NCBI RefSeq assembly: GCF_000146505.1
Contig: NC_017448.1
Coordinates: 1,590,001 to 1,622,000, forward strand
Source of the DNA: Fibrobacter succinogenes subsp. succinogenes S85
GTDB lineage: Bacteria > Fibrobacterota > Fibrobacteria > Fibrobacterales > Fibrobacteraceae
DNA: 32,000 bases
Direction of reading: 5' to 3'
The notes beneath the pieces were generated by a model that saw only the letters and a program-made list of their open reading frames with translations, was not told where the DNA came from and searched no databases. This document shows, piece after piece, positions 8,908 to 26,229 of this stretch. A program made the translations under genes and the position numbers. Within the stretch, counting starts at the first letter, position 1; each line of letters begins with the position of its first letter.

Positions 8908-9450
8908 ATGACAATCTACGACTTCACACTTACCGATGGTAAAGGCAACGAAATTCCACTCTCTAAATTCAAGGGCCAAGTCATGCTCATCGTGAACACG
9001 GCGACCGGCTGCGGTTTCACCCCACATTACAAGCCGATCGAAAAGATGTACACAGACTTCCACGACAAGGGCTTCGAAGTCATCGACATTCCATGCAACC
9101 AGTTCATGGGCCAGACCCCTGGCACAGACGACGAAATTCATGAATTCTGCACGCTCAAGTACGGCACCACGTTCCCGCAGATGAAAAAGTCTGACGTGAA
9201 CGGACCCAACGAGCTCCCGCTTTACACCTACCTGAAATCCAAAATAGGCTTTGAAGGTTTCGGATTCGGCGTCAAGGCGGCAGCAATGGCCATGCTTCTG
9301 AAGAAGATCGACAAGGATTACAAGAATAATCCTGATATCAAGTGGAACTTCACAAAGTTCGTCATCGACCGCGCAGGCAACGTTGTCGCCCGTTTTGAAC
9401 CCACTGCCAAAATGGAGGACGTACGTTCTTGCGTTGAAAAGCTACTTTAG
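8908..9450 (+). CDS. glutathione peroxidase family protein
   Basis: LIVNTATGCGFTP (active-site Cys), CNQFMGQTPG and IKWNFTKF are canonical GPx blocks. Confidence 0.9.
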   Translation: MTIYDFTLTDGKGNEIPLSKFKGQVMLIVNTATGCGFTPHYKPIEKMYTDFHDKGFEVIDIPCNQFMGQTPGTDDEIHEFCTLKYGTTFPQMKKSDVNGPNELPLYTYLKSKIGFEGFGFGVKAAAMAMLLKKIDKDYKNNPDIKWNFTKFVIDRAGNVVARFEPTAKMEDVRSCVEKLL

Positions 9451-9896: not shown

Positions 9897-10432
9897 TAAA
9901 AATATTGTTCGTATGTCACGGGAACATCTGCAGAAGCCCGATGGCAGAATTTGTAATGAAAAAGTTGGTACGCGATATTAGTTCGTCCGCAAAACATGTT
10001 ACGACGAACAGCGCATTGACTGCCGCAGACTTTGAGATTGCATCTGCAGCGACAAGCACCGAAGAAATCGGAAATCCGGTGTACCCGCCCGCAAGACGTA
10101 TGCTCGCCAGTCACGGCATTGACTGCAGCGGAAAAACGGCCCGACAAATGACCGTCGCTGACTACAATCATTACGATTACATCGTGCTCATGGATCAAAA
10201 TAACCTGCGGAATCTCCGTTGGATTTTACCCCGCGACATTTACGAACGAGAACTTGCGCAATACAAAGATGCGCGCGATTCACGAGTCGGCAAAGTTTCG
10301 CTCCTCATGGATTGGGCGGGCAAAAACCGCGACGTTGCAGATCCTTGGTACACAGGCGATTTCAACGCCACTTGGCAAGACGTCAACGAAGGCTGTACCG
10401 CCTTGCTACAGCACATTTTGAAAAATTCATAG
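9893..10432 (+). CDS. low-molecular-weight protein-tyrosine phosphatase
   Basis: It has the ILFVCHGNICRSPMAE P-loop (CX5R-S) and a C-terminal DPWY motif. Its start overlaps the upstream stop as ATGA. Confidence 0.85.
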   Translation: MIKILFVCHGNICRSPMAEFVMKKLVRDISSSAKHVTTNSALTAADFEIASAATSTEEIGNPVYPPARRMLASHGIDCSGKTARQMTVADYNHYDYIVLMDQNNLRNLRWILPRDIYERELAQYKDARDSRVGKVSLLMDWAGKNRDVADPWYTGDFNATWQDVNEGCTALLQHILKNS

Positions 10433-13322: not shown

Positions 13323-13403
13323 TTTCGTTTCCTTAGGTTTGATGATAAGATACAAAAAAGCCGACCCTGCGGCCGACTTTTCCATCCATTCTAAGGATTT
13401 AGA

Positions 13404-13898
13404 TTACTTTGCGCAACCCGTGCCGAGAGTCCCCATCATCACACTCACACACTGGGCTTCTATCGCCGCCGCTTCTGCACTGCCTGCCGGATATTCAAGG
13501 CATTCGCCAAAGACCCCCGGGACATCGCAAGAAACCATCGCACCCGTTGCCGGAGTATCAGTAGTGGGCGTGCCTGTAGCAGGCGTATCAGTTGCAGGAG
13601 GATTCGTGGCCGGAGCTGCATTTTCGCAACCCGCCACAGGATTGCCCAAAGTCTGCATATCCCACTGAGCGCCATTGCATTGAGCCAATTCAGAATAACC
13701 CGTAACAACGACCGTTGCGCACTTGTTCACAGTCTGGGAACAAGTGTAGTTGTTATCCAGATCAAAGAACTTATCAACACTCGCCGGGAGTGTATCCTGT
13801 TTTGGACCGGCAGCCGGAGCGTTTGGCGAACTATCGTCACTACAGGCAACAAACGAAGCCATAGCAATGGCAGCAATAGGAAGAATCAGTTTTCTCAT
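13404..13898 (-). CDS. lipoprotein with Pro/Thr-rich linker
   Basis: Lipobox MRKLILPIAAIAMASFVAC, the low-complexity run NPPATDTPATGTPTTDTPATG, and several Cys residues. Confidence 0.7.
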   Translation of the reverse strand: MRKLILPIAAIAMASFVACSDDSSPNAPAAGPKQDTLPASVDKFFDLDNNYTCSQTVNKCATVVVTGYSELAQCNGAQWDMQTLGNPVAGCENAAPATNPPATDTPATGTPTTDTPATGAMVSCDVPGVFGECLEYPAGSAEAAAIEAQCVSVMMGTLGTGCAK

Positions 13899-14315
13899 AA
13901 TGTGTACTCCTTAAAATAATTGGTAGGGATAAACTATAAAAAATACGAACAAAAAACAACAGATAAAGTGTTGAAATTTGTATTCAGATATCAAGCAGAT
14001 TAATTTGGTCCCCAGTGGTGACACATTTCAACTAGCTATCCAACAACACCCACAAGAAGGTGGATGCGTCCCATCGCGGATGCACATACGGGCCATAAGG
14101 CCTATGCCGACTGTCACAGGGATTTTCGTAATCTCAGGCAAAATGCGCAGAAACAATTCTGCACATTTGCACACCAACAATATAAGTTATCAAAAGTTCT
14201 CTGTCAAGAGGTTCCAAGCCCCCAAAACTCAACTTCTTCGAAATTCGTCCCATAACTCGGAGCCATTGTATCTCAAGCATAAAGAATCTAAATTCTTCTA
14301 CAGGGAAAAAATAAC

Positions 14316-14618
14316 ATGTTCAATGCATCACTTTCATGGATCAAAAGCAAACAAGTCTTCCTGAAAATTCAGGCGGGCACGGGAGACAATTTGCAGCAAG
14401 AAGACATCCAAAAAGGATTTGTCGATTATTGTCTTTGGTCTACTTTCAAGCCGGAAAATATAGACATAGACGGGGAACTTGATATGGAAAGCATCGACAG
14501 CGGAATGGTCCTGTTCAGGGAAAACTGCACCCCCGGAGAGGCGCTGGAATCGAGCTGCCGGCAAGCCTTCGGCACCGACTTCGACAAGGACGATGTTATG
14601 GTACTGATGCTGAAATGA
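14316..14618 (+). CDS. hypothetical protein (100 aa)
   Basis: Only an ORF with protein-like acidic composition. No recognisable motif. Confidence 0.35.
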   Translation: MFNASLSWIKSKQVFLKIQAGTGDNLQQEDIQKGFVDYCLWSTFKPENIDIDGELDMESIDSGMVLFRENCTPGEALESSCRQAFGTDFDKDDVMVLMLK

Positions 14619-14655
14619 CACCTTTCCCGAATAAGGAAATAGAAATCCAAAAATG

Positions 14656-14973
14656 TTATCGGGTTTGTAAAAGCAATCTTTTTACTTTTGTGGTGAATTC
14701 TTCAAATGAAATATTTTTCCATTGATGATGATAGTTGCTTACCGCTTCGGAAACCGGACGTTTATTGTAGCCCTCTCGCCATTCATAGAAAACATCAAAT
14801 TCATCTCGGCGTTGTTTGAGATATTGATTGTCAGGACCGCCAAGTTTGACGGAAATATCTTTAAACGCTCTAGTGAATGTTTCATACCCTAAAGCGGATT
14901 TCGCCTTTTCATTAAACTTCGCAAAATAGTACGCAACAAAAGATTTGTGTTCATTGATTTCTTCTTGAGTCAT
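14656..14973 (-). CDS. hypothetical protein (105 aa), resembles the small helical N-terminal module seen on some HNH/McrA-type restriction proteins
   Basis: YYFAKFN...ALGYETFTRAFKDISVKLGG...YLKQRRDEFD. The resemblance is from memory of that module and is not verified. Confidence 0.5.
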   Translation of the reverse strand: MTQEEINEHKSFVAYYFAKFNEKAKSALGYETFTRAFKDISVKLGGPDNQYLKQRRDEFDVFYEWREGYNKRPVSEAVSNYHHQWKNISFEEFTTKVKRLLLQTR

Positions 14974-15152
14974 ATAAATTCCTTTTTATGGATAAACTGT
15001 TATCTTCTAATTGTCATAACCACGCCACGTAGTGCACAATATAAAAATATCCTCCCCCTCGCTTAGGAACTCTGCCCCTAAAACCTCGCTTGACCGCAGA
15101 CAACCATTAGAGTATTTTAAACAAAGTCAAACATTCTCCGGAGACCCGCCAA

Positions 15153-15614
15153 ATGCAAGGTAAACCGTCACACTACTTCGTCATCCGCTCGCCGTACGTC
15201 CAGCTAGTGCTTACCGGCGTAAAGACATTTGAATGGAGGACAAACGCAAAAATGTTTGCGAACAAGCGCCTCGCCGTCGCAGTCTCCAAATCTCGCGCCC
15301 ATGAAGACGACCTGCAAAACGACATCGCCAAGTGGGAAAAACTGTGGAGCAAATTCCTGAAGAAAGCGACCGCAAAAGACCGCGAAACCGCGCTCGCAAA
15401 ACTCAAGAGAAACCGCGCCAAGGCCGAAAAGCTGTTCGACAAGACAAACGGATGCGGCATGATTATCGGCGAAATCGTGACGGGCGACGTCGCCACCTAC
15501 GAAGGACTCCTGGGCGTTCCCGTACTGGAATTCAAACTCTGGCCGGAATCCGAATGGATGGAATCTCCCGGCGGCCTCGGCGTACGACACATGCCAGAGA
15601 GGACAGGGGAATAA
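15153..15614 (+). CDS. ASCH (PUA-like) domain protein with a charged helical insertion
   Basis: IRSPYVQLVLTGVKTFEWRTN fits the ASCH opening (xxGxKTxExR). An insert of about 55 aa rich in Lys/Glu/Ala (HEDDLQNDIAKWEKLW...RAKAEKLFDK) comes before the distal beta strands (GMIIGEIVTGDV). Confidence 0.55.
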   Translation: MQGKPSHYFVIRSPYVQLVLTGVKTFEWRTNAKMFANKRLAVAVSKSRAHEDDLQNDIAKWEKLWSKFLKKATAKDRETALAKLKRNRAKAEKLFDKTNGCGMIIGEIVTGDVATYEGLLGVPVLEFKLWPESEWMESPGGLGVRHMPERTGE

Positions 15615-15786
15615 AACTCTTTCCTATTTCGGCAAATGTGAGTTATCTCAAAGATGATCAAATCGTTTGTATAGCCATTGGTTTACATCCTAATTGAAAC
15701 CCAAGACGAAAATGGCGCAGCCGGAGTTTTACTTGTACTCTTTAAAGAGATGTTTTAGCTTAATTATTATAATTCTAGAAATGTTC

Positions 15787-15815
15787 TTGACAATTACATT
15801 GACTATTTATATATT
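15787..15815 (+). promoter_or_regulatory. sigma70-like promoter of the methyltransferase gene, near-leaderless
   Basis: TTGACA (15787-92), 17-nt spacer, TATATT (15810-15), and ATG only 8 nt further (15824). The -35 region contains a direct repeat TTGACAAT / TTGACTAT. Confidence 0.4.
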
Positions 15816-15823
15816 ATACACAT

Positions 15824-17080
15824 ATGAGCAGTAAGATAAATTTAGTAGAAGACCAAATAAGAAAGTCGGACAAGATTCCTAAGATTGTCGCACTAAGCTT
15901 TTTTTCTGGCGCCATGGGACTTGACATAGGCTTATCGAAAGCAGGTATAAAGGTTTTGCTTGCATCCGAAATAGAACCAAATGCAAGACGAACAATTCTA
16001 ACGAATGAGCCGAACATTGGTCTCATAGGTGATATAAGCGATTATTCTGCCGAAGACATCAGAAAATACGCTAATTTACCTAAGAATCAAGAAATTGATG
16101 TAATGGTAGGAGGCCCTCCATGCCAAGCGTTTTCCACCGCAGGTAAGAGAGAGAGTTTTTCCGATGCACGCGGAAACGTGTTCCTCACCTACATTGACCG
16201 TATCCTTGAATTACGCCCTAAGTACGCAGTAATTGAAAATGTTCGAGGCCTCTTATCCGCCGCTTACAACCCGCCTAAAAAAGAAAGTTTCGGATTCGCA
16301 ATGCCAACTCCTAAAAATGAAAAGGGGGGAGCATTAGCTTATATCATAAAAAAATTGGAAGATGGTGGATATGGGGTTTCATTCAATTTATACAATGCTG
16401 CAAATTATGGAGCACCCCAAAAAAGAGAACGAATAGTCATTATTTGTTCGCGAGACGGTTCAAAAGCGCCGTATTTGACCCCGACTCATTCGGAAACGGG
16501 CTTGTTCAATTTACCCAAATGGCGAACCGTTTCCGAAGTGTTGAACGACCTAGATGAAAATGTCCAGGAATATTCAAAATTCTCCGAAAAAAGACTAAAG
16601 TTCTTCAGAATGCTGAAGGCCGGCCAGTATTGGAAAGACCTCCCCGAAGAAGCCCAAAAAGAAGCAATGGGTTCAAAACTGCAACTTGGCGGTGGAAAGA
16701 CAGGGTTCTTTAGAAGATTGGCTTGGGATTTGCCTTCTCCTACGTTGGTAACAGACCCGACAATGCCGGCTACAGATTTATGCCATCCTGATAAGGATCG
16801 TCCTTTGAGTGTTCAAGAGTACAAACGAATTCAAGAATTTCCTGACGATTGGAAGCTTTGTGGTGACATCAAAGCCAAATACAAACAGGTTGGAAATGCC
16901 GTGCCAGTTAGCTTAGGCATGGCAATAGGTAAGCACATTGTGAAATTGCTTGAAGGAAAAAAAGTCAAACAAATTGAAGGATTCCCGTATTCTCGCTATG
17001 TAAACACGGATGTAGACACATTCAAAAAACTGGTAATGTCTAAGAAAGAAATAGTAGGTCAGTTAGAATTGAATTTCTGA
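15824..17080 (+). CDS. DNA (cytosine-5)-methyltransferase
   Basis: All diagnostic motifs are present: I FFSGAMGLDIG, IV GGPPCQAFS, VI ENVRGL, VIII QKRERIVII, X GNAVPVSL. Confidence 0.95.
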   Translation: MSSKINLVEDQIRKSDKIPKIVALSFFSGAMGLDIGLSKAGIKVLLASEIEPNARRTILTNEPNIGLIGDISDYSAEDIRKYANLPKNQEIDVMVGGPPCQAFSTAGKRESFSDARGNVFLTYIDRILELRPKYAVIENVRGLLSAAYNPPKKESFGFAMPTPKNEKGGALAYIIKKLEDGGYGVSFNLYNAANYGAPQKRERIVIICSRDGSKAPYLTPTHSETGLFNLPKWRTVSEVLNDLDENVQEYSKFSEKRLKFFRMLKAGQYWKDLPEEAQKEAMGSKLQLGGGKTGFFRRLAWDLPSPTLVTDPTMPATDLCHPDKDRPLSVQEYKRIQEFPDDWKLCGDIKAKYKQVGNAVPVSLGMAIGKHIVKLLEGKKVKQIEGFPYSRYVNTDVDTFKKLVMSKKEIVGQLELNF

Positions 17081-17151
17081 TTATTACCATAAAGAGTCAT
17101 AGTAATCGTCCATAGAATTGTAGTGAGATTTGAAATCGCGAACCAAGTCGT

Positions 17152-18021
17152 TTATTTTTTCTCTATTTCTTTTACTATGCCTGAATCATGCAAAACAGCA
17201 TCTGCTGCATTGCGTATGTTTTTTGAGAGTGTTGAATGATATTGTCCTTTGCCAGATATGTGCTCCCACAATTCTCTTCCCACAAAAGTTTTTTTCTTCC
17301 AATCTTTGACATAAGTTTCTAGCAATTTAGAAGTGACGGTCGCTGCGTTTTTCTTGCCGTAGGTAATGCCAATATACGCTTTATTGCCTTTTTTTTCAAC
17401 GCTGGATAGTTCTTCATCATAATGCTTAATCTGCCCCTTATCTAAATCGTTGAATCCACTTTTTATTTCAAAGAATGTCTTTTCTCCATCTTTATCTATC
17501 ACTAAATCGAACTTAGTTTTTTTGCCTTCGTTATAGTTCTTGCCATCATATATATGTTCATTTGAATATAAAAGCAGGTCTTGGACAAGAAAGCCCATGG
17601 ATGTCACGATACTTCTGGAAACAGCTTGATATGTATAAAATTTGATAAAATCTTTTGGATTGTCAAATTTCAATGCATAACATAATAAGGGATTTGTATT
17701 TAGATCATTTATTGTAATTTCTTTAATCTTTTCCAGCTGTTTTGCTATAAATTTTTTTGTAAAAAGCTGTATAAAGTTTTCTTCTATTGTGCAATCATTA
17801 TTTATTTCTTTTTGCAGTTCTTCTATAGCTTTTATTTCCTTTTGTGTTAATTTTTTCCCGTTTGGGAGGGGGCTAATTTCGTTCACAGACGCTTGTTTAA
17901 ATTTTTCTAGCGAAGAATATTGGGACTTGATTATTTCCAGTTTTTCTTTGAAAGAACGACTCGAACTCGTCATATGAATTAGACATCCTTTTTTTATGAA
18001 TTCAGATACAGAGGCCGCCAT
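17152..18021 (-). CDS. PD-(D/E)xK nuclease-like protein, candidate restriction endonuclease (second of two)
   Basis: FDLVIDKDGEKTFFEIKSG gives a D...E-x-K catalytic signature. It is AT-rich like its neighbours and convergent with the methyltransferase. An alternative start lies at 17973 (MTSSSR). Confidence 0.55.
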   Translation of the reverse strand: MAASVSEFIKKGCLIHMTSSSRSFKEKLEIIKSQYSSLEKFKQASVNEISPLPNGKKLTQKEIKAIEELQKEINNDCTIEENFIQLFTKKFIAKQLEKIKEITINDLNTNPLLCYALKFDNPKDFIKFYTYQAVSRSIVTSMGFLVQDLLLYSNEHIYDGKNYNEGKKTKFDLVIDKDGEKTFFEIKSGFNDLDKGQIKHYDEELSSVEKKGNKAYIGITYGKKNAATVTSKLLETYVKDWKKKTFVGRELWEHISGKGQYHSTLSKNIRNAADAVLHDSGIVKEIEKK

Positions 18022-18106
18022 TTTTCTTTAATCTACGATGCAAAAAAATGTTTTTTTATTTAACGTATCAAGACACGCGTTTCCTATAATCAATTGTAAA
18101 AGGGAT

Positions 18107-18811
18107 TTATGTTCTATAATTAAGTATTTTCTGGATAGCTTCGCATTCAGCTAAATCCACGTATAAACACTTTGGATTCATTATAACAACAGCTCGTGCA
18201 AACTGAATAAATTCTTCCTCACTGAGTTTGTCACTTGCTGGTATGCCAAGCATTGTATTGAGAGCCCCCCATTCTGTTTGCCCCGTCCTTGAGCTAAGAC
18301 GATACCATTTTTGAATGGTTGTGCCTGCTCGTATTTTATCGCTGGAGCTGTTTTCTGTATTGTCTTTGTTTTTAATCTGAATCAGGTCGCCGTTTTTATT
18401 GCACAAGTCAACAGCTTTGATGCAGCTGCCCCAGCAAGTGGCCCATCCATATTTTAGTACTTTCGTATGGATATATTCCTCGAGAATCAAACCGATTATA
18501 TTTTCGGCTCCCATTGAAAGCCTGTGGCCAAAACGAATAAGAGCAATGTCATTAGGGGTAAAAGATTTTATTCGTGCTCCAATAAGATTGTCTATCAGTT
18601 TATCCGGTACCGTAGTCATTTTTCCAGATATTCGTTTTGATGGCCTATGGTTGTAGGCATTGAAGAATTTGTTTATGAACGATTCAACATCTGCTTGACT
18701 TGCGTTTGAATTTTGTTGTAACCAAACAGGAGTTACAATTTTGAATCCGGATTCTTCCGTTTCCTCTGAATAATATTGATTTGCAAGTTCTATTATTTCT
18801 GATGTGTTCAT
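18107..18811 (-). CDS. candidate type II restriction endonuclease, translationally coupled to the controller protein
   Basis: Its start overlaps the C-gene stop as ATGA (18808-18811). AVDLCNKNGDLIQIKNK is a PD-(D/E)xK-like D...x-I-K segment. Size (234 aa) is typical of a type IIP REase. Confidence 0.55.
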   Translation of the reverse strand: MNTSEIIELANQYYSEETEESGFKIVTPVWLQQNSNASQADVESFINKFFNAYNHRPSKRISGKMTTVPDKLIDNLIGARIKSFTPNDIALIRFGHRLSMGAENIIGLILEEYIHTKVLKYGWATCWGSCIKAVDLCNKNGDLIQIKNKDNTENSSSDKIRAGTTIQKWYRLSSRTGQTEWGALNTMLGIPASDKLSEEEFIQFARAVVIMNPKCLYVDLAECEAIQKILNYRT

Positions 18812-19044
18812 TTTTTTATCTCTCCTACATTAGTAACATTATACAGATCCATTATGTTTATGTTGAGATATTGAATTAGGACTATCGCCTTACGAAAGGA
18901 GATGTTTCTTTCTCCTCTCTCGATCATTCCTATATAGTTTTTATGCATTTCAACAGCATTTCCAAGCTGTTCCTGACTTATGCATTTCTTTTCTCTAGCT
19001 TTCTTAACTAGTAAGCCAAAATTTTTTAGGAAGGGATCGTTCAT
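18808..19044 (-). CDS. XRE-family HTH controller (C) protein of the R-M system
   Basis: 78 aa from ATG 19044. ISQEQLGNAVEMHKNYIGMIERGERNISFRKAIVLIQYL is a lambda-repressor-like HTH. Its position and stop/start overlap with the nuclease gene are typical of C proteins. The track ORF to 19071 starts at TTG. Confidence 0.75.
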   Translation of the reverse strand: MNDPFLKNFGLLVKKAREKKCISQEQLGNAVEMHKNYIGMIERGERNISFRKAIVLIQYLNINIMDLYNVTNVGEIKK

Positions 19045-19051
19045 TTTTTCA

Positions 19052-19079
19052 ATTATATAAATGAAATTCAAAAGAGCAA
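19052..19079 (-). promoter_or_regulatory. sigma70-like promoter of the C-R operon, apparently leaderless
   Basis: On the minus strand: TTGCTC (19079-74), 16-nt spacer, TATAAT (19057-52), then 7 nt (TGAAAAA) before ATG 19044. Confidence 0.4.
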
Positions 19080-19182
19080 CACACTATCCGTTGTTTTTTG
19101 CGTTTTTTGGTATTTTTGTTGCCTAATAGTGCTGTTTTGAGTTATGTTTAGATAGAAGGTTAATAAACAATAGGATCAAATT

Positions 19183-19497
19183 ATGGATTTCAGCACTTTT
19201 GAACGGCTTTACATTCCTTATTGCGAAACAACAAATGTGAGTAGTGGTAAGGCAAGATCTTATTATCTTGCAATTAAATATTTGGCAGAATATCTAAACT
19301 TGCCGAATCTTGGTTACGGGAATGCTTACAAGATTCTCGAAAAAGAAAATGACCTTAGCGAAAGGAATAGCATTTTTTACAGACAGCTACTTCGCCAATG
19401 GGATGATGATGGTCATAGCTCCTATTTAAAAAATGGATTCGTTCAAGCGGCCATCTCTTATTTTAGGAAATTTGCTGCAGATAACAATTTGCTGTAG
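19183..19497 (+). CDS. hypothetical protein (104 aa)
   Basis: ORF with plausible composition. AT-rich island gene. No motif recognised. Confidence 0.45.
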   Translation: MDFSTFERLYIPYCETTNVSSGKARSYYLAIKYLAEYLNLPNLGYGNAYKILEKENDLSERNSIFYRQLLRQWDDDGHSSYLKNGFVQAAISYFRKFAADNNLL

Positions 19498-19536
19498 CAG
19501 ATACCCAGTCTCTATCACTATTTTATAGAACAATAA

Positions 19537-19566
19537 CCCCTATGATTTTTAGCATAGGGGTTATTT
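19537..19566. terminator. bidirectional intrinsic terminator between convergent genes
   Basis: CCCCTATG-ATTTTTAG-CATAGGGG, a perfect 8-bp stem, flanked by AATAA on the left and TTATTT on the right. Confidence 0.7.
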
Positions 19567-19575
19567 AGATTTATC

Positions 19576-20520
19576 TCAAAAAATCTTCCCTTCTATTGAG
19601 CCGGCCCCTGTTGTTTTGCATAATATGATCTTATTCCTGTTTTGGGGCCATTTTTGTATTAAGTGATTGCGATCTAGCCTCTTTTCATCAATAAAAAGAT
19701 TCACACTGTTTTCAAAAGTTAACTCATTATTTTTACGTTGGATGACTGTTTTTTCGTCGATTCTGTCACGCTCATCGTGCAGTTCGAAATTTATTGATGT
19801 AAATCCAATTTGCCAGAAAGCCATATCCAACAATTTCATCTGCGTATATTCTAGGTTCCCTTTTTGGAGTGTTACCCTATAACTTTCTAATTGATCAAAA
19901 TTATTTTTATAAAATTCTATAAGATTGTTCAAGGATGTTTTGTTGTATGTTTTCGTCGTTACTTGTTCATATGCGACACCTTTGGCAAAATACTGATCAT
20001 AGGCGGGAACACATCCCAGAGTTCCTAAAAGGACTTTTGTTATCAGGATTGTCGACAGATCAGATTCTACTTCTTCCTTGTACAATAAATCGGAAACACT
20101 TTTTCGAACATCGGAGTAGTATTCAGTGATTTTTTCTGATAAATCCCATAATGCCAGGTTCAGTTCTGAATTGATAAGTTCTTTACATCCTGCTCCTTGA
20201 AGACGCTTGTCCGAGTTCAAAATCATTTCAACAACTTTGCGATGGATTTTGTTATCTTGTTGCAGGAGGAAGGAGGATCCGCGATACATTCCCCAGCTAG
20301 CAAGATAAAAAGCCAGATGAAGGCAAAGGCGGTCTTTGTCACTCTCTGTTATGGACTTTTTATTTCGAACTTCACAAAAAGCCGAGTAGCAGTGTTCCCA
20401 AGAAAGATATCGACTATTTTCTTTTTTGCAGAATCGCCAATACTCTTCCGTGTTTTTTATGAGTTTTTCTATAAGGTACTGTTTTTTCGGTTTTGTATTT
20501 GCTGTGGGACATGTTTTCAT
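19576..20520 (-). CDS. hypothetical protein (314 aa), distal gene of an uncharacterised operon
   Basis: Long AT-rich ORF 7 nt downstream of the preceding gene. It has the conserved-looking block LCLHLAFYLASWGMYRGSSFLL. No family assigned. Confidence 0.6.
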   Translation of the reverse strand: MKTCPTANTKPKKQYLIEKLIKNTEEYWRFCKKENSRYLSWEHCYSAFCEVRNKKSITESDKDRLCLHLAFYLASWGMYRGSSFLLQQDNKIHRKVVEMILNSDKRLQGAGCKELINSELNLALWDLSEKITEYYSDVRKSVSDLLYKEEVESDLSTILITKVLLGTLGCVPAYDQYFAKGVAYEQVTTKTYNKTSLNNLIEFYKNNFDQLESYRVTLQKGNLEYTQMKLLDMAFWQIGFTSINFELHDERDRIDEKTVIQRKNNELTFENSVNLFIDEKRLDRNHLIQKWPQNRNKIILCKTTGAGSIEGKIF

Positions 20521-20527
20521 ATTTGGG

Positions 20528-21172
20528 TTATATGTTATGTTCAGCCAAGTATTGCAATAATGAGTTCATGTTGCGATCATACCAGTCATTAGTAACAAAG
20601 TAATGTTCATTTCTGATAGAAATATCATCGGCATAATATCTGGATCTGCCATGATTATCATTACGCCCAGCATCAGTTAGCTTTAACACTGGGTAGCGAA
20701 GATTTCCAAATGTACGACGGCAGTATGCAGCGTCTTGTAAATTGGATACCTCTTCGTTAGATAAATTGCCGCTTTTCAAAAGATCATACAGTCTGGTTTT
20801 AACAATAAATCCAGGTCTTAATTCAGCCAAATTCTCATTTACTTGAGCTTGCGCTGGAGCGAGGTTATTGAACCTTCGAATCCTATTTTGTCTTCCTGGA
20901 TTAATCTCTGTCATCTTCCAAAGTTTTACAGCTCGAATAAACAATTCGCTTTCGTCAGCTATATTGTCGGTCAAATTGCAAAGTGGAATCAATATGCTTG
21001 ATTTAAATTCTTCATTTGCGATAATCTTTAGATCAACTTCGCAATTATTTTCGGAAAAAAAGTCTCTTAGATTATTGATATTTGCATTTAATTGGGTTAA
21101 AGTAGTATCTCCAATTCTAGGCGAAATAAATGTTAGTTCTATGGCACTATTTGGGAAAAAGGATTTCGTCAT
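20528..21172 (-). CDS. hypothetical protein; the reading frame stays open upstream to 21280 with no canonical start, so it is probably the C-terminal part of a split gene
   Basis: 214 aa from the first ATG. The same frame reads RRSYKIFAYESAFHENGLNYQDTQKKVIHKFFRNYL upstream of that ATG. Confidence 0.55.
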   Translation of the reverse strand: MTKSFFPNSAIELTFISPRIGDTTLTQLNANINNLRDFFSENNCEVDLKIIANEEFKSSILIPLCNLTDNIADESELFIRAVKLWKMTEINPGRQNRIRRFNNLAPAQAQVNENLAELRPGFIVKTRLYDLLKSGNLSNEEVSNLQDAAYCRRTFGNLRYPVLKLTDAGRNDNHGRSRYYADDISIRNEHYFVTNDWYDRNMNSLLQYLAEHNI

Positions 21173-21225
21173 TAAATAGTTTCTGAAAAATTTATGAATT
21201 ACTTTTTTTTGAGTGTCTTGATAAT

Positions 21226-21534
21226 TTAAACCGTTTTCATGAAAAGCTGATTCATAGGCAAAAATTTTGTACGACCTCCTTCAAACAAAAGACCTAATAA
21301 ATCACATTCGGTGGATTCCAATACGGTTGAAAAGGATTGTGGTCGATTGCCTGATGTAAAACGAAAAACAGAAAAACGTTCATCATCTTGAAAACGATTA
21401 TATAGAGTTTCTAGCTCTGATTCATTATATTGCTGCCAGAATCTAGACACCTTGAAGTTAGTTTGAACAATCTGACAGCCTTTACAATGTCTCAGCCAGG
21501 AATAAAGCATGCTTTCTGCTATTTCTATTTTCAT
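21226..21534 (-). CDS. hypothetical protein (102 aa), probably the N-terminal part of the split gene
   Basis: MKIEIAESMLYSWLRHCKGCQIVQTNFK...ESTECDLLGLLFEGG, after which the frame ends. It overlaps the open upstream extension of the next ORF by about 50 nt. Confidence 0.55.
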   Translation of the reverse strand: MKIEIAESMLYSWLRHCKGCQIVQTNFKVSRFWQQYNESELETLYNRFQDDERFSVFRFTSGNRPQSFSTVLESTECDLLGLLFEGGRTKFLPMNQLFMKTV

Positions 21535-21759
21535 TCTGGATTCCTTTTCAGTTAAACACCTGCAAATTAAAATAAATTATTTCCATACAAAAGTCCAAAG
21601 ATTTTTTTGCGTTAGGGATAGTGACCCCTTGGGGACAAGACTCGCATAGCGAGGCTTGGTTCTAGGAGGCGAGCGGCAAGCGAAAGCGTAGGCGATTGCC
21701 CCTAGAATATAGCCCGACCCGGCCCTTCGGCAAGCTCAGGGACCTGGGCCGGGGAACGC

Positions 21760-21801
21760 CTTGTAAAATTTTCTTGCTTCCATGGCGCAAGCGCCAAATG
21801 C
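21760..21801 (+). repeat. left 42-nt boundary repeat of the cassette array (18-nt core plus palindrome)
   Basis: CTTGTAAAATTTTCTTGCTTCCATGGCGCAAGCGCCAAATGC is 39/42 identical to 26031-26072. It contains the perfect palindrome TGGCGCAAGCGCCA. Confidence 0.85.
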
Positions 21802-21814
21802 TAGGCTCAGTCAT

Positions 21815-21836
21815 AAAAATAAGCAAGCTTATTTTT
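21815..21836. repeat. perfect 10-bp inverted repeat AAAAATAAGC-AA-GCTTATTTTT
   Basis: Read directly from the sequence. It lies in the 59-nt unique spacer between the left boundary repeat and the first leader module, and could act as a bidirectional terminator. Confidence 0.5.
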
Positions 21837-21896
21837 GCGACATTCGCCTTACGCATTTGTGCCAACATTTTCGATATTAGGTACATTAATGCAGCA

Positions 21897-21934
21897 CGTG
21901 ATTCTCTGTCAAATGGAGAATCGCGTCTTTTTTT
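21897..21934 (+). terminator. intrinsic-terminator-like hairpin inside leader copy A
   Basis: CGTGATTCTC-TGTCAAATG-GAGAATCGCG (10-bp stem including one G-U) followed by TCTTTTTTT. Confidence 0.6.
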
Positions 21935-21976
21935 ATTCTGTAATTTCAGAATTAGGGGACGCCTCTAACATCAACC

Positions 21977-21993
21977 GGTCACAAATTGTGACC
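21977..21993. promoter_or_regulatory. palindromic operator-like site GGTCAC-AAATT-GTGACC
   Basis: Perfect 6-bp half-sites lie between the leader hairpin and the SD of the toxin gene. Confidence 0.4.
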
Positions 21994-22017
21994 ACATGGA
22001 GGCAAAAAGCACCTATC

Positions 22018-22338
22018 ATGAATGAAAATATTGACAACTTGTCAAAATTTGATTACATTATAAAAAGATACACGGTCAGAATAACTCATAAGGCTTTAAA
22101 GAACCTTGATAAAATGCCCAAGCCAGAACAGGAAAAGTTCTTCCGTTTGAAAACGGCTTTGGAAACAAGAGGTCCTGAACAGCCCTCGTTTATGAATTAT
22201 TCTAAACTCGGTATGAACATGTATCATTGCCATTTGTCAAGAAAATGGGTTGCATGTTGGAAAAATGAATCGGGAACTTTAACTATAGAGGTCTACTATG
22301 TTGGCAGTCGTGAAAGCGCCCCCTACGCACGGCACTAA
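22018..22338 (+). CDS. RelE/ParE-superfamily toxin
   Basis: 106 aa from ATG 22018. YTVRITHKALKNLDKMPKPEQEKF...L...YSKLGMNMYHCHLSRKWVACW...TIEVYYVGSRESAPY follows the RelE/ParE pattern. The toxin-first order with an XRE antitoxin is HigBA-like. Confidence 0.65.
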   Translation: MNENIDNLSKFDYIIKRYTVRITHKALKNLDKMPKPEQEKFFRLKTALETRGPEQPSFMNYSKLGMNMYHCHLSRKWVACWKNESGTLTIEVYYVGSRESAPYARH

Positions 22339-22714
22339 GAAGCCGGTATCCTTCAAGATCGAAGGAGAACAGATTCCCGACTTCGTTTTGGGGATGCTCA
22401 AGTACATGTTTCCGAAATGTGTCAAGATTTATGAAACGCCGCTCAAAAAACGTCATGATATGGATGAGGAATCGGTTGTGCTCGAAAGTACCGATTGGAA
22501 CAAGAGAATGTCCGCGGAAATGACACCAGGCAAGGCCATCCGTGCCGACCGTGGGCTTCGCGGATGGACGCAGAATGTTCTCGCGCAAAAACTCGGCATC
22601 TCTATACAGAACCTTTCTGCGATGGAACATGACCGTCGTCCGGTATCCAAGAAAATGGCCGCAAAGCTGTCTCAAATTTTCGACGTCCCGCCTGAAACAT
22701 ATTTCAAATTCTGA
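22298..22714 (+). CDS. XRE-family HTH antitoxin with N-terminal extension
   Basis: The C-terminal GKAIRADRGLRGWTQNVLAQKLGISIQNLSAMEHDRRPVS is an HTH_3. It overlaps the toxin by 41 nt, with an alternative ATG at 22394. Confidence 0.7.
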   Translation: MLAVVKAPPTHGTKKPVSFKIEGEQIPDFVLGMLKYMFPKCVKIYETPLKKRHDMDEESVVLESTDWNKRMSAEMTPGKAIRADRGLRGWTQNVLAQKLGISIQNLSAMEHDRRPVSKKMAAKLSQIFDVPPETYFKF

Positions 22715-22727
22715 CTGTAAAATTTTC

Positions 22728-22756
22728 TTGCACCCCTAGCCAACATTTTCGATATT
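22728..22756 (+). promoter_or_regulatory. sigma70-like promoter inside leader copy B
   Basis: TTGCAC, 17-nt spacer, GATATT. The -35 hexamer is formed by the 3' end of the 18-nt core. Confidence 0.35.
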
Positions 22757-22774
22757 AGGTACATTAATGCAGCA

Positions 22775-22811
22775 CGTGATTCTCTGTCAAATGGAGAATC
22801 GCGTCTTTTTT
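22775..22811 (+). terminator. intrinsic-terminator-like hairpin inside leader copy B
   Basis: Same hairpin as copy A, followed by TCTTTTTT. Confidence 0.6.
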
Positions 22812-22853
22812 ATTCTGTAATTTCAGAATTAGGGGACGCCTCTAACATCAACC

Positions 22854-22870
22854 GGCCACAAATCGTGACC
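22854..22870. promoter_or_regulatory. palindromic operator-like site GGCCAC-AAATC-GTGACC
   Basis: Same position as in copy A, with one half-site mismatch. Confidence 0.35.
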
Positions 22871-22883
22871 ACATGGAGGCTAA

Positions 22884-23926
22884 ATGACCAAGAACACAAA
22901 AAATGTGACTGTTGCGCCAGTCAAATCAGAAATGTCCCTGATAGACGAGAACTTGCTCAAATCGCGTATTTATACCATCCGAGGGGCCAAGGTCATGCTT
23001 GATGCCGATTTAGCCGAAATTTATGGGTATAGTACCGGAGCTTTTAACCGGCAAGTCAAGAATAATATTGAGCGTTTTGCGGAGGATTTCCGGTTCCAAT
23101 TGTCCAAAAGGGAAGTTGAAGAATTGCGATGCAAAAATTGCACCGCAAATATCAGCACAATGAACCGCTCCTATCCCTTTGTTTTTACGGAACAAGGTAT
23201 TTACATGCTCATGACCGTGTTGAAAGGCGATTTAGCGATACAACAGAGTATGGCCCTCATTCGTCTTTTTAAGCAGATGAAAGACTATATCGTTGCAGAA
23301 AATCAGCAACTGCTCGGAACTGCGGGAATCGCCCAGATTGCAGCGCAGACTGCTCAAAATACACATGAAATTGCGGTGGTTTCTGCCGAAGTAAAGGAAC
23401 TTTCCGGCGAAGTTCGCGACATTCGGAGTGATTTGGGAAAAATCAATATGGACCTCCAGATGGTCATGGAAAATTTCGTCGATCCATCGACTTACAAGCA
23501 CTTCTTGATTCTGAATGGACAGAAGTTGGAAGCCGATGTCGCCTACGCACAGATTTACGGCATGGCGAAGAAAACGCTGTTGATTGTCGATAACTATGTT
23601 GACATCAAGACGTTGAATTTGCTCAGAAATGCGCACAAAGGCGTTTCCATCTTGATTGCGAGTGACCAATATACCCGCAAACAGACGATATGCTCAACGA
23701 TTTTCGTGCTGCGATGCCGGGCATTTCGATTGACAAAATTTCTGCTGCGCACAAGTTCCACGACCGATACATTCTAATCGATATCAAGACCAAAAGCGAA
23801 AAGCTGTACCATTGCGGGGCTTCTAGTAAGGACGCCGGCAATAAGATTACGACTATTGTTCAACTGGATGACATTGAGGCATACCGGAACATGTTTGAAG
23901 AACTGTACGCCAAGCAGGAAACTTAA
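22884..23926 (+). pseudogene. ORF6N (KilA-N-related) domain protein with PLD-like HxR...D C-terminal domain, interrupted by a frameshift near 23675-23695
   Basis: The N-terminal MLDADLAEIYGYSTGAFNRQVKNNIERFAEDFRFQL is ORF6N. The frame changes after ...VSILIASDQYT. The second frame (open from 23666, ATG at 23690) continues MLNDFRAAMPGISI...FHDRYILID...LYHCGASSKDAGNKITT. The two ORFs overlap, and each alone is a truncated version of the usual protein of about 340 aa. Confidence 0.65.
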
Positions 23927-23945
23927 TTACAAAAGCGAGGTAAAA

Positions 23946-24299
23946 ATGAACTATACATTTACAGAAAAAGAAGTTGAAATGATGTACAACTGGGGAATGT
24001 ACGCTGATGGGGAAAGCGGCTTCAATGAAGAAGAAAAAAAGTTGTACGATAAATTGGAGCGAATATTTACGCCATTACAAAAAGAAAAAAATAATGCGCA
24101 AAAGGTTGTAGAATTTTTCAAAGAAATTAGCAATACATACGAGAACGTAAGTTATTACTGGAGTACTGGGACCTGTATCAAATTTATTGACTATGATAAA
24201 ACACTTTGCTTTGACACTAAAAAAACTAAATACACAGATGTGGTGCTCGAGGTGTCGAAGGTTATAAACAAATTAAAGTTGAAAAAGCGAGAAGATTAA
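23946..24299 (+). CDS. hypothetical protein (117 aa)
   Basis: ATG 23946 is preceded by GAGGTAAAA, 19 nt after the ORF6N-family stop. No motif recognised. Confidence 0.5.
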   Translation: MNYTFTEKEVEMMYNWGMYADGESGFNEEEKKLYDKLERIFTPLQKEKNNAQKVVEFFKEISNTYENVSYYWSTGTCIKFIDYDKTLCFDTKKTKYTDVVLEVSKVINKLKLKKRED

Positions 24300-24361
24300 T
24301 AAATGCCGAAATAGCCACAATCCAGAATGGGAAGTAGGCACATTGCTCTTGTAAAATTTTC

Positions 24362-24390
24362 TTGCACCCCTAGCCAACATTTTCGATATT
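24362..24390 (+). promoter_or_regulatory. sigma70-like promoter inside leader copy C
   Basis: TTGCAC, 17-nt spacer, GATATT, as in copy B. Confidence 0.35.
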
Positions 24391-24408
24391 AGGTACATTA
24401 ATGCAGCA

Positions 24409-24446
24409 CGTGATTTTCTGTCAAATGGAGAATCGCGTCTTTTTTT
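24409..24446 (+). terminator. intrinsic-terminator-like hairpin inside leader copy C
   Basis: CGTGATTTTC-TGTCAAATG-GAGAATCGCG. The single C>T difference from copies A and B converts a C-G pair to U-G, so the stem is retained. Followed by TCTTTTTTT. Confidence 0.6.
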
Positions 24447-24498
24447 ATTCCGTGATTTTGGAATAAGGGGACGCCTTCAACTAATCAAAGGAGGCGCA

Positions 24499-26037
24499 AT
24501 GGCTCTATCTAATATCGACATCGCTACAATTCTTTCAATGGAAGAATCGCAGACTTTTGACCGCAAAAGCATTAATATTGCTCCGCGTGATTTTTCCAAC
24601 CATGTCTGCGCATTCGCCAATGCCGATGGCGGCATTATCGTAGTCGGCATTTCGGACAAGACCAAACGCATAGAAGGCGTTGATTCTCGGGAACGTCAAA
24701 TAAACGAGCTATTACGAGTACCGATGGATTTCTGCCTGCCTACGGTTCCATTCGTTCATGAATTTGTGGATTGTGTAGATTCAAACGGCAAGGCAAACCA
24801 TGTTCTTGTTTTCCATATAGAAGCGAGTCCGCTTGTTCACGAGAACCAAGCGCATGACGCCTATATACGGATTGGAGACAAATCAAAAATTCTTTCTTAC
24901 GAGGACCGCATGACGCTTAGCCTAGACAAAGGATTGCGCTCGTTTGAAGATATTTTGGTTCCAGATTCAAGTTACGACGATATTGATGAAGTTTACCTCA
25001 AGGAGTATCTGCAAATGGTAGGATACTCAAGAAGCCCTCGGGAGTATCTATTGCAAAACAAGAACTTTGCCAAGGAGAAGGCCGGCGAAATACGGCTAAG
25101 CGTTGCAGCTATATTACTATTCGGAAAGAATCCGCAGCAGTTCTTTCCTCGCGCTCGTGTACGCTTTATCCGCTATGAGGGTACCGAGGAAAAATTTGGA
25201 ACTGAGATGAATGTCATCAAGGACGTAATCTTTGAGGGGCGAATTCTTGAACAGATTCGGCAGGCTGTTGCCTATATTCAGACGCAAATCAAGGAACGTA
25301 CGTATTTGACCAAGGGCGGAATTTTTACCACAGAACTTGAGTATCCTGAATTTGTACGTACAGAACTAGTTGTCAATGCGGTAACACATAGGGATTACTC
25401 TATTCGCGGAACAGAAATTCAAATCAAGATGTTCGATGATCACTTGGTTGTCGAGTCACCTGGCAATTTGCCGAGTCAAGTAAAAATTGACAAGATTAGG
25501 AATGCGCATTTTGCACGAAACTCACACATCGCGGAGTACCTAAAGGATTACAAGTATGTTAAGGATTTTGAAGAAGGCGTTGACCGAATGTATCGAGAAA
25601 TGGAGGCGTCAGGTTTACCTGTGCCTGAATACCGTCAGGATTCTTTCATTTTGAAGGTCATTGTCAAAAATTCAGGTTTTGCCCTTCAGAAAACGGGATT
25701 TGAGTCCGAAAAAACGGGATTCGCTCTTCAAAAAACGGGAATTGAATCTGAAAAAACGGGATTTGCTCTCCAAAAAATGGAAATCGCATCTATTGTATTA
25801 AATTCAGGTTTTGGGAAGACAATAAAAGAAAAAATGAAAAAAATCATTGATGAAATAGACGAAAATCAAGTAATTGCAGCAAAGGATATTATGAAAATTT
25901 TAGCGTGCAAGCCAACCGCCGCAACAGAGATGATTAAACGAATGCGCTCGCTAAATCTTTTGAATAAAATAGAAGGAGTAGGACCAGGTCGTTATTCCTT
26001 AAATTTTCTCTCAATAACCACACCGAAGGACTTGTAA
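24499..26037 (+). CDS. AlbA_2 (Schlafen-like) DNA-binding domain protein with HATPase_c_4-like domain and C-terminal wHTH
   Basis: The N-terminal EESQTFDRKS...HVCAFANADGGIIVVGISDK is the AlbA_2 signature. The middle NAVTHRDYSIRGTEIQIKMFDDHLVVESPGNLP is the RecG-like HATPase_c_4 block. Its stop codon TAA lies inside the rightmost 18-nt core. Confidence 0.8.
   Translation: MALSNIDIATILSMEESQTFDRKSINIAPRDFSNHVCAFANADGGIIVVGISDKTKRIEGVDSRERQINELLRVPMDFCLPTVPFVHEFVDCVDSNGKANHVLVFHIEASPLVHENQAHDAYIRIGDKSKILSYEDRMTLSLDKGLRSFEDILVPDSSYDDIDEVYLKEYLQMVGYSRSPREYLLQNKNFAKEKAGEIRLSVAAILLFGKNPQQFFPRARVRFIRYEGTEEKFGTEMNVIKDVIFEGRILEQIRQAVAYIQTQIKERTYLTKGGIFTTELEYPEFVRTELVVNAVTHRDYSIRGTEIQIKMFDDHLVVESPGNLPSQVKIDKIRNAHFARNSHIAEYLKDYKYVKDFEEGVDRMYREMEASGLPVPEYRQDSFILKVIVKNSGFALQKTGFESEKTGFALQKTGIESEKTGFALQKMEIASIVLNSGFGKTIKEKMKKIIDEIDENQVIAAKDIMKILACKPTAATEMIKRMRSLNLLNKIEGVGPGRYSLNFLSITTPKDL
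25675..25782 (+). repeat. 42-nt in-frame tandem repeat, 2.5 copies (GFALQKTGxESEKT)
   Basis: GFALQKTGFESEKT / GFALQKTGIESEKT / GFALQKME, read from the translation and the DNA. Confidence 0.8.
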
Positions 26038-26072
26038 AATTTTCTTGCTCCCGTGGCGCAAGCGCAAAATGC
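26031..26072 (+). repeat. right 42-nt boundary repeat of the cassette array
   Basis: CTTGTAAAATTTTCTTGCTCCCGTGGCGCAAGCGCAAAATGC is 39/42 identical to 21760-21801. Confidence 0.85.
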
Positions 26073-26209
26073 AGATGTACGTAAACTACTATGATCGTTA
26101 TGTAAAGCAGGATTTCAAAAAACCGACTATCGGCATTTTACTTTGCAAAGAGAAGAAGGATACCCTTGTGAAGTTGACGTTACCCGAAAAAGCAAATATT
26201 TATGCCCCC
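26069..26209 (+). pseudogene. 3' fragment of a YhcG/DUF1016-type PD-(D/E)xK nuclease gene
   Basis: KMQMYVNYYDRYVKQDFKKPTIGILLCKEKKDTLVKLTLPEKANIYA matches the C-terminal block of the YhcG family (GKMxFYxxxxD...PTIGIxLC..K....V.Y.L). No N-terminal 250 aa is present upstream, and the frame then runs into nhaC out of frame. Confidence 0.5.
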
Positions 26210-26229
26210 ACTTTTCTATCTTTCACGTC

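Follow-up and report, generated by a model that had tools for sequence, protein, structure and literature searches.

The 32,000-nt stretch of the Fibrobacter succinogenes subsp. succinogenes S85 genome analyzed here (the window; positions 1,590,001 to 1,622,000 of contig NC_017448.1, or about 1143283-1175282 of CP001792.1) contains a unit of about 170 nt in three near-identical copies (21836-22003, 22714-22880 and 24348-24495), each at the head of a different operon. Every copy combines a promoter-like site (TTRCNC-17/18-GATATT), a 14-bp hairpin followed by T6-7 (hairpin 1), a second hairpin (hairpin 2), a conserved GGGGACGCCT and a GGAGGC. It is tentatively proposed, at somewhat less than an even chance, that these are copies of a repeated boundary unit that would stop incoming transcription, restart it weakly 5' of its own terminator, hold expression of the operon behind it at an attenuated level, and act as a recombination substrate.

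In detail, transcription from the preceding operon would be stopped by hairpin 1 and its T-run, and a weak sigma-70-type promoter (AT-rich core, TTRCNC, 17-18 nt, GATWTT) would lie just 5' of that terminator, so that most transcripts would end as an RNA of about 50 nt. Only read-through transcripts would carry the structured 5' untranslated region (UTR), which consists of hairpin 2, GGGGACGCCU and a palindromic hairpin, into the operon together with the shared GGAGG. Potentially toxic genes would in this way be expressed at a low, leaky level. As a direct repeat, the unit may also serve as a substrate for homologous and short-homology recombination, by which operons would be deleted, swapped and re-joined between strains.

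A 109-nt block of the unit is present at 21861, 22739 and 24373 (family D1 of a repeat finder run on the window), and a 28-nt stretch of that block is seen three times against an expectation of 0.00. The original prediction described a module of about 145 nt before three unrelated first genes, and the module is a real unit common to unrelated operons, with all its elements at or within 2-25 nt of the positions given for them. However, the unit starts further left, at an 18-nt core, (C/A)(T/C)TGTAAAATTTTCTTGC, found four times in the window (21760, 22714, 24348 and 26031). The 17-bp palindrome GGYCAC-N5-GTGACC (GGYCACAAATYGTGACC) was correctly placed in copies A and B, as was the GGAGG before the ATG, and copy C lacks the palindrome. 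Of the predicted TTGCAC-17-GATATT, copies B and C carry the exact form, but copy A has TTACGC and an 18-nt spacer. The hairpin and its T-run are present in all three copies and are of terminator grade, with 14 pairs and not the 10 first described. Hairpin 2 (ATTCTG-TAATTT-CAGAAT), the conserved GGGGACGCCT, the position of hairpin 1 as first terminator of the preceding operon, and the recombining defence island had been overlooked. The parts of the three modules are as follows; segment X is an optional insert described further below.

21836..22003, + strand: module A, with a strongly diverged core (21836-21860), behind segment X
21849-21854 and 21873-21878, + strand: promoter-like site of module A, TTACGC and GATATT, 18-nt spacer
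21896-21926, 21928-21934 and 21935-21952, + strand: hairpin 1, T7 and hairpin 2 of module A
21955-21966, 21977-21993 and 21998-22003, + strand: right part of module A, GGGGACGCCTCT, palindrome and GGAGGC
22714..22880, + strand: module B, with core 22714-22731, TTGCAC 22728-22733 and GATATT 22751-22756
22762-22769, + strand: palindrome CATTAATG of module B
22774-22804, 22806-22811 and 22812-22829, + strand: hairpin 1, T6 and hairpin 2 of module B
22774..22811, + strand: hairpin 1 and T-run of module B as called by the terminator scan, intrinsic-terminator-like, 14 pairs, loop CAA
22832-22843, 22854-22870 and 22875-22880, + strand: right part of module B, GGGGACGCCTCT, palindrome and GGAGGC
24348..24495, + strand: module C, of a short right-hand type without the palindrome, with core 24348-24365
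24362-24367 and 24385-24390, + strand: promoter-like site of module C, TTGCAC and GATATT, 17-nt spacer
24408-24438, 24440-24446 and 24447-24464, + strand: hairpin 1 (U-G variant), T7 and hairpin 2 (variant c) of module C
24467-24478 and 24490-24495, + strand: right part of module C, GGGGACGCCTTC and GGAGGC

Across copies, hairpin 1 has 14 pairs, of which 4-5 are G-C, and a 3-nt loop (CAA), and is followed by a C and T6-8. The terminator scan calls it in all three window copies and in every other copy examined. Its folding energy is -17.2 kcal/mol (-14.6 in copy C), and for hairpin plus T-run terminators that follow real genes in this window the range is -13.8 to -22.0 kcal/mol; as judged from sequence, it is of terminator grade and equal to the bona fide terminators of this genome. 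It is also the first terminator 3' of the stop codon of each preceding operon. No transcript mapping in F. succinogenes was found in the literature.

The only promoter-like element kept in all copies is TTRCNC-17/18-GATWTT, which lies upstream of hairpin 1 with the AT-rich core 5' of it. Its hexamers are TTGCAC or TTACNC and, after 17 or 18 nt, GATATT, with A2 and T6 of the -10 kept throughout. The site agrees with the consensus at 7 of 12 positions and was hence not called by the scan, whose threshold is 9/12. Promoters and terminators of F. succinogenes resemble those of E. coli, an example being TTGACA-17-TATATT, directly 5' of the methylase gene at 15824. Two copies (L098_5538 and L101_5539; loci and contigs are referred to by L numbers) show about 11 substitutions, almost all in the spacer between the hexamers, and keep GATATT, the spacing and bases 1-4 of the other hexamer. 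CTTAC-18-GATATT is also retained by copies with a left end that has diverged by about 45%. The predicted starts, at about 21884, 22762 and 24396 (CP001792.1 about 1165166, 1166044 and 1167678), leave only about 12 nt before hairpin 1, and the promoter-like site is 18 nt from the terminator. With the sole conserved promoter-like element 5' of the hairpin, the product would be either an RNA of about 50 nt or a read-through mRNA, the former of which the original prediction had foreseen. Some read-through may be expected from L108 and L112, where the antiporter gene begins 20 nt after the last defence operon and the module is its nearest upstream candidate promoter. Transcription from the unit probably has to reach the antiporter gene there, which argues that read-through is not negligible. 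Together, these features would favour attenuation by a weak promoter that precedes its own terminator.

The main competing explanation, somewhat unlikely, is that of an ordinary intergenic region, in which the terminator of the preceding operon is followed by a non-consensus promoter, the upstream hexamers occur by chance and no attenuation takes place. The order of elements (stop codon, about 60 nt, terminator, 45-65 nt, ribosome-binding site (RBS)) is that of an ordinary boundary, the upstream site scores only 7/12, and TAACAT at 22843-22848 (TATCAT in L026) has T1, A2 and T6 of a -10. However, the corresponding -35 would then coincide with the loop of hairpin 2, which is hypervariable, and the short right end of the C type is too small to hold a -10, a start and a 5' UTR before GGAGG. 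The scan found no promoter of 9/12 or better between terminator and start codon, nor upstream of the first modules that face divergent genes. This explanation also does not account for the 60 nt between stop codon and hairpin being the best-conserved part of the unit.

The distribution of the unit was followed through a metagenome scan (9 contigs), anchoring on the antiporter gene in GTDB representatives (29 Fibrobacter loci) and look-ups of two window proteins (19 more contigs), with copies then located by nhmmer. In this way 28 distinct copies were found in S85, rumen metagenome-assembled genomes and metagenomes. Every one of them sits in a single variable defence island, upstream of a Na+/H+ antiporter gene and downstream of restriction-modification or McrBC-type genes (mostly of the LlaJI type; of the EcoO109I/SinI type in S85), in arrays of 1-4 units. 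No copies were seen outside the island, and the unit is absent from the IMG/VR, phage and plasmid collections searched. Only three of the 29 Fibrobacter loci (L017, L019 and L026) have the whole unit, and their antiporters are 94-99% identical to that of S85; right-end fragments occur in L018, L020 and L034. An exact 23-mer scan of GTDB representatives returned no matches, with related ones carrying 1-2 mismatches in the 23-mer and the S85 region possibly masked. The unit is restricted to a narrow F. succinogenes clade and is undescribed, and the literature yielded nothing specific on Fibrobacter integrons, small RNAs or transcription start sites.

In S85 the island extends from about 13386 to 26229, between the thioredoxin and antiporter genes (about 12.8 kb). 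An empty site is found in L027, in which these two genes are 66 nt apart (9935-10000). As the stretch conserved between strains 5' of the antiporter ATG is only about 24 nt, the island appears to sit between the antiporter gene and its original promoter. Throughout, the unit has the orientation of the genes and lies between a stop and a start codon, with GGAGG 5-7 nt 5' of the ATG in five of the six junction types.

The fullest arrays, in L112 and L108, contain three groups: a module with HigB-like and HigA-like genes, a module with DUF1016 (338 aa), ORF6N (347 aa) and a 117-aa gene, and a module with DUF1016 (353 aa), Schlafen (484 aa) and the antiporter gene. Gaps within these groups are 15-20 nt, which indicates that the unit heads operons and not single genes. 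To judge from family matches, the cargo is of the defence or toxin type. The helix-turn-helix (HTH) protein of the first operon matches HigA TIGR02607 at 2.4e-07, below the cut-off, and the exact protein is listed in 78 blocks of the collection. The ORF6N protein matches the PADLOC candidate PDC-S05 (5.6e-81); its gene is frameshifted in S85, where it is read as 22884-23777 (297 aa) and an overlapping 23690-23926 (78 aa), whereas L019 and L112 have uninterrupted versions of 347-350 aa. DUF1016/YhcG proteins belong to a family of PDDEXK nucleases. For the Schlafen/AlbA_2 protein the match is to a pAgo-associated domain (4.8e-46), and prokaryotic Schlafen proteins have been reported as anti-phage defence (2026, PMC13552941).

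Differences between strains consist of deletions and of mosaic exchange within the unit. The 19-nt repeat CCACATGGAGGCTAAATGA has two occurrences in L112, one closing the module that precedes DUF1016-2 and one just 5' of ORF6N, and deletion between the two repeats yields the exact module-ORF6N junction of S85 and L019. This comparison indicates that the S85 array is a derived arrangement, in which ORF6N acquired its leader secondarily, via deletion of the DUF1016 gene. Similarly, the left part of module C, with the U-G variant of hairpin 1 and variant c of hairpin 2, is that of the DUF1016-1 leader of L108-L116, and the Schlafen512 cassette appears to have replaced most of DUF1016-1. Other deletion junctions re-use the short homology CAAATG. 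Tabulation of 21 copies shows each of the three hairpin-2 variants together with each of the two right-end types (six combinations), over an interval of about 11 nt, and also that leader variants are not tied to the gene that follows them; the units hence recombine among themselves.

Several observations weigh against the proposed boundary unit. Efficient termination is to be expected of a 14-bp stem with U6-8, so that read-through alone may be too low. Three copies tolerate an insertion of 80-82 nt inside the T-run. A 7/12 promoter match is common by chance in AT-rich DNA, and a minus-strand TTGACA-18-TAATGT, read from the sequence of the same region, scores 9/12, above the plus-strand site. 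Among the 21 copies compared, covariation backs no helix, and the pairing of GGAGG with GCCUCU (0.83-1.0) is nearly matched in shuffled sequences (0.69-0.79). Finally, a purely regulatory role does not account in full for the sharp edges of the unit (TGTAAAATTTT on the left, GGAGGC on the right).

Two of these elements have features of their own. The minus-strand candidate promoter (22783-22788 and 22759-22764, with equivalents in copies A and C) has the loop of hairpin 1 as its TTGACA; antisense transcripts from it would run into the preceding operon, or toward the divergent XRE gene in L017 and L103. The T-run insertion is palindromic (L019 6609-6690, L026 about 9243-9322, L098 about 6586-6667) and is related to window 21778-21860, segment X of copy A, with which it has the hairpin AAAATAAGCAAGCTTATTTT in common; it looks like a small mobile hairpin element.

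The fixed edges can also be read in terms of a previously undescribed cassette platform, in which open reading frames (ORFs) or operons would be captured between TGTAAAATTTT and GGAGGC, each gaining a terminator-gated promoter. Infection, for instance through a phage antiterminator or a change in RNA polymerase, would then trigger read-through of the gate, so that unrelated defence operons would share one sensing leader. This remains an unlikely elaboration.

At the level of RNA structure, the 21 distinct copies are so similar that covariation carries little information: paired cells amount to 94.2% as compared to 93.5% in shuffles (a value reached by 41 of 500), the covariation score is 0.064 as compared to 0.058 (48 of 500), and the RNAalifold covariation term is -0.16. 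The covariation check suggested with the original prediction thus gave no significant signal. The structure-preserving C>T to which it had drawn attention does convert a pair of hairpin 1 in copy C to U-G (pair 72-86), but these figures give it no statistical weight. Several other single changes fit wobble pairing only if the + strand is read. Hairpin 1 shows two different C>U changes of this kind, L026 has U-G and G-U in its hairpin 2, and the palindrome has G-U and then G-C in L002 and L020. Pair 108-117 of hairpin 2 appears as U-A, U-G and C-G, yet with five unpaired cells. Disruptive changes are found as well (G>A in L098_6493, C-U in hairpin-2 variant b, C-A in copy B).

Two further structural candidates were rejected. 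Sequestration of the RBS by GCCUCU (or GCCUUC) is significant only in copy C, shuffles pairing nearly as often. The closing stem CCCCUA/UAGGGG (helix 1, 82.5% paired), which is the sole long-range pairing, is lost in all copies with a diverged left end. A pyrBI-like leader-peptide attenuator was also considered: an AGG-N7-ATG opens a short ORF, MQHVILCQMENRVFF, across hairpin 1. This ORF is not conserved, with three synonymous changes, two non-synonymous changes and one nonsense change (TAG at codon 2, in L019) across copies, and its stop position moves with the length of the T-run. Since it crosses the hairpin, gene callers extend the first gene to 149 aa.

A conditional attenuator, in which a ligand, protein or phage antiterminator would switch read-through of hairpin 1 and induce the defence operons on demand, is quite unlikely. 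Its layout would be the one seen here (promoter-like site, terminator, structured leader, genes), and the 173-nt unit folds better than shuffles (-46.1 kcal/mol, z = -3.56). Regulators could bind to the 17-bp palindrome and to the perfect palindrome CATTAATG, located where transcription is presumed to start, and the first operon of most arrays encodes a HigA-like HTH protein, for which CATTAATG and GGTCACAAATTGTGACC would be candidate sites. However, arrays without the HTH operon exist (L002, L017, L019, L026), and no significant covariation was seen. The riboswitch-like leader envisaged in the original prediction fares poorly on the same evidence: the approximately 12 nt before the hairpin leave no room for an aptamer, and constrained folding yields no competing antiterminator, the best structure with the 3' arm blocked reaching -5.3 kcal/mol as compared to -21.1 kcal/mol. 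As had been anticipated, the unit belongs to no known class in Rfam 15, which gave no matches at gathering thresholds over the window and none at E<=5 over 21500-22900.

Promoter / antitoxin-RNA / terminator / toxin is the layout of type III toxin-antitoxin loci such as ToxIN. Like those loci and like attenuation leaders, the unit places a promoter-like site, a strong hairpin with a U-tract and an RBS ahead of genes that are harmful if over-expressed, and read-through would set their level. Unlike them, it has no tandem RNA repeats, aptamer, antiterminator or conserved leader peptide, and one leader appears to be re-used by several operons. A type III toxin-antitoxin system was itself rejected on the lack of tandem repeats in the unit and on the downstream genes, which are HigB-like, DUF1016, ORF6N and Schlafen.

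It is also quite unlikely, to a similar degree, that the unit, its core or hairpin 2 is a DNA-level recombination site, that is, an attC- or rAID-1-like cassette junction served by a recombinase encoded elsewhere. The left edge is sharp, with TGTAAAATTTT constant to within 2 nt in at least eight unrelated upstream contexts, and two unrelated genes (Schlafen512 and that for a 737-aa LlaJI-like protein in L019) stop at a TAA inside the core. The Schlafen512 cassette occupies differing array positions between strains. Hairpin 2 is shaped like the core site of a recombinase: its 8-bp arms are inverted around a 6-bp spacer that occurs in three variants, and the exchange of its variants with the right ends, noted above, would also fit. 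On the other hand, the sizeable ORFs of the 32-kb window contain no recombinase domain, a small serine recombinase occurring only in the related island L026. The unit lacks a GTTRRRY / RYYYAAC pair, and no long imperfect palindrome extends across it. Many junctions are simple deletions between short homologies, and the gene orders largely fit deletion derivatives of one longer array.

Integron attC sites in particular were rejected: the unit has no R''/R' boxes and no unit-wide palindrome, its + strand lacks any GTT, AGCCAAC is a one-mismatch R''-like word without a partner, no IntI recombinase was found in the sizeable ORFs of the window, and arrays have only 1-4 units. As in attC arrays and CALINs, a conserved element lies between co-oriented accessory or defence genes, and array content varies between strains. 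The Fibrobacter unit differs in being a 5' leader with its own terminator and RBS, in having no integrase nearby and no Rfam or attC-like match, and in its highly conserved sequence, where attC sites conserve structure only. The nearest described analogues at this level are the rAID-1 arrays of Bacteroidales and the DUF1874 motif. rAID-1 arrays encode a conserved XerD-family recombinase and up to 31 genes with repetitive intergenic sequence, and have been called reminiscent of integrons (Ross et al., bioRxiv 10.1101/471110). As in the present arrays, repeated intergenic sequence lies between small genes for defence or immunity, but the Fibrobacter array has no recombinase and 3-4 units, and no sequence relation was detected. 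Bacteroidales and the Fibrobacter hosts belong to the same FCB superphylum. The DUF1874 motif likewise consists of structured, potential 5' UTRs in consecutive intergenic regions without an integrase, for which an RNA or DNA role is undecided (Weinberg et al. 2017, PMC5737381). Unlike that motif, which is multistem with a conserved internal loop, the unit has a different sequence and structure and matches no Rfam family.

A small-RNA gene in each intergenic region, producing a trans-acting RNA of about 50 nt (a 12-nt single-stranded 5' tail plus the terminator hairpin), with the downstream genes incidental, is very unlikely. A promoter-like site with a terminator 18 nt on is the anatomy of such a gene, and the segment TTAGGTACATTAATGCAGCAC is nearly invariant, which weighs little among copies that are all recently related. 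When the 5' tail was scanned for duplexes with both strands of the window, only its own antisense matched, no Rfam family was found, and the precise fusion to the RBS would be left unexplained.

Least convincing is a roleless, selfish or neutral repeat resembling a miniature inverted-repeat transposable element (MITE), spread by duplication and gene conversion, which would suit the narrow, young distribution (among the 29 Fibrobacter loci, only those with an antiporter at least 94% identical to that of S85), a divergence no slower than that of neighbouring sequence and the other small palindromic insertions in the region, but not the lack of terminal inverted repeats and target duplications, the orientation fixed with the genes, the stop-to-start placement, the spacing of GGAGG from the ATG or the restriction to one island. 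Correia elements of Neisseria and similar repeats bring promoters, terminators and RNase sites into intergenic regions, and the unit is likewise a short repeated intergenic sequence able to supply expression signals to its neighbours. A MITE or Correia-like element was rejected since the ends TGTAAAATTTTCTTGC and CCACATGGAGGC are not inverted copies and the flanks show no duplication; the lack of a TA duplication, the fixed orientation and the confinement to one island are further differences from Correia elements.

The remaining features of the array are as follows.

21760..21777, + strand: core copy 1 (CTTGTAAAATTTTCTTGC), directly 3' of a GC-rich hairpin element at 21713-21760
21778..21835, + strand: segment X, inserted optionally between the core and the remainder of module A, also in L005, L007, L026 and L098
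within 21778-21801, + strand: hairpin GGCGCAAGCGCC of segment X
21815-21836, + strand: AT-rich hairpin of segment X
22018..22714, + strand: operon A, a RelE/HigB-like toxin candidate (22018-22338) without a family match and a HigA-like HTH protein (22298-22714)
22884..24299, + strand: operon B, the ORF6N gene and a 117-aa gene (23946-24299)
24499..26037, + strand: operon C, a Schlafen/AlbA_2 + HATPase_c_4 protein, whose stop TAA lies inside core copy 4
26031..26072, + strand: core copy 4, followed by 24 nt from the beginning of X and then by a DUF1016 C-terminal fragment, a junction also found in L101 and L104
26230..27573, + strand: Na+/H+ antiporter gene, the conserved right flank

In operon A, the GGAGG of the module is 15 nt from the annotated ATG at 22018, and a TTGACA-17-TACATT (10/12) lies at 22031-22059, within the first codons of the HigB-like ORF, which makes the true start of this gene or of its transcript uncertain. 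The Schlafen/AlbA_2 gene of operon C contains tandem 21-nt repeats (AAAAAACGGGATTTG, 25667-25792; a 7-aa period in about six copies) between the HATPase_c_4 domain and the C-terminal DNA-binding domain. The DUF1016/YhcG C-terminal fragment (YYDRYVKQDFKKPTIGILLCKEKKD) occupies about 26073-26200, between core copy 4 and the antiporter gene. Upstream of the array, the GC-rich region 21600-21760 is made up of nested hairpins (GCGTTA...ATAGCCCGACCCGGC-variable-GCCGGGGAACGCC) whose frame recurs with other inserts in L002, L003, L005, L008, L009, L026 and L034. The junction of GC-rich hairpin and core seen at 21760 recurs in the first six of these, and in L034 no core follows, for which reason the GC-rich region is regarded as a separate element. 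Between the restriction-modification genes and the array, three consecutive ORFs (314, 214 and 102 aa; 19576-21534, - strand) have no Pfam, NCBIfam or PADLOC match. The housekeeping genes of the window include rpsB, tsf and ETF, and a Fib_succ_major domain protein is also encoded.

A second, unrelated candidate for a leader or noncoding RNA, of about 250-330 nt, has a promoter of its own, TTGACT-17-TATATT, and GCGUCC...GGACGC as its terminal hairpin. Within the window it is represented only by a truncated 5' portion, at the island's left edge (14029-14136, - strand). Other copies are found in L034 (8320-8664, directly 5' of an ORF6N-like gene, and 2065-2274 on the - strand), L020 (8598-9011, directly 5' of a DUF1016-like gene), L018 (9160-9463), L038 (6242-6416, - strand) and L040 (6545-6719, - strand). 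Compensatory differences between species are visible in this candidate, and it has no Rfam match.

If the proposed reading of the repeated unit is wrong, the unit would be a young, lineage-specific intergenic repeat. If it is correct, a single re-usable promoter, terminator and RBS unit would hold unrelated toxin and anti-phage operons at low expression in a cultivable rumen bacterium, and homology provided by the same unit would let strains gain, lose and reorder these operons. Defence islands would then be able to join expression insulation with modular evolution without an integron integrase, and this one would be a simple, testable example. For a phylum in which genetic tools are scarce, the unit would also offer a natural and compact "leaky gate" part.

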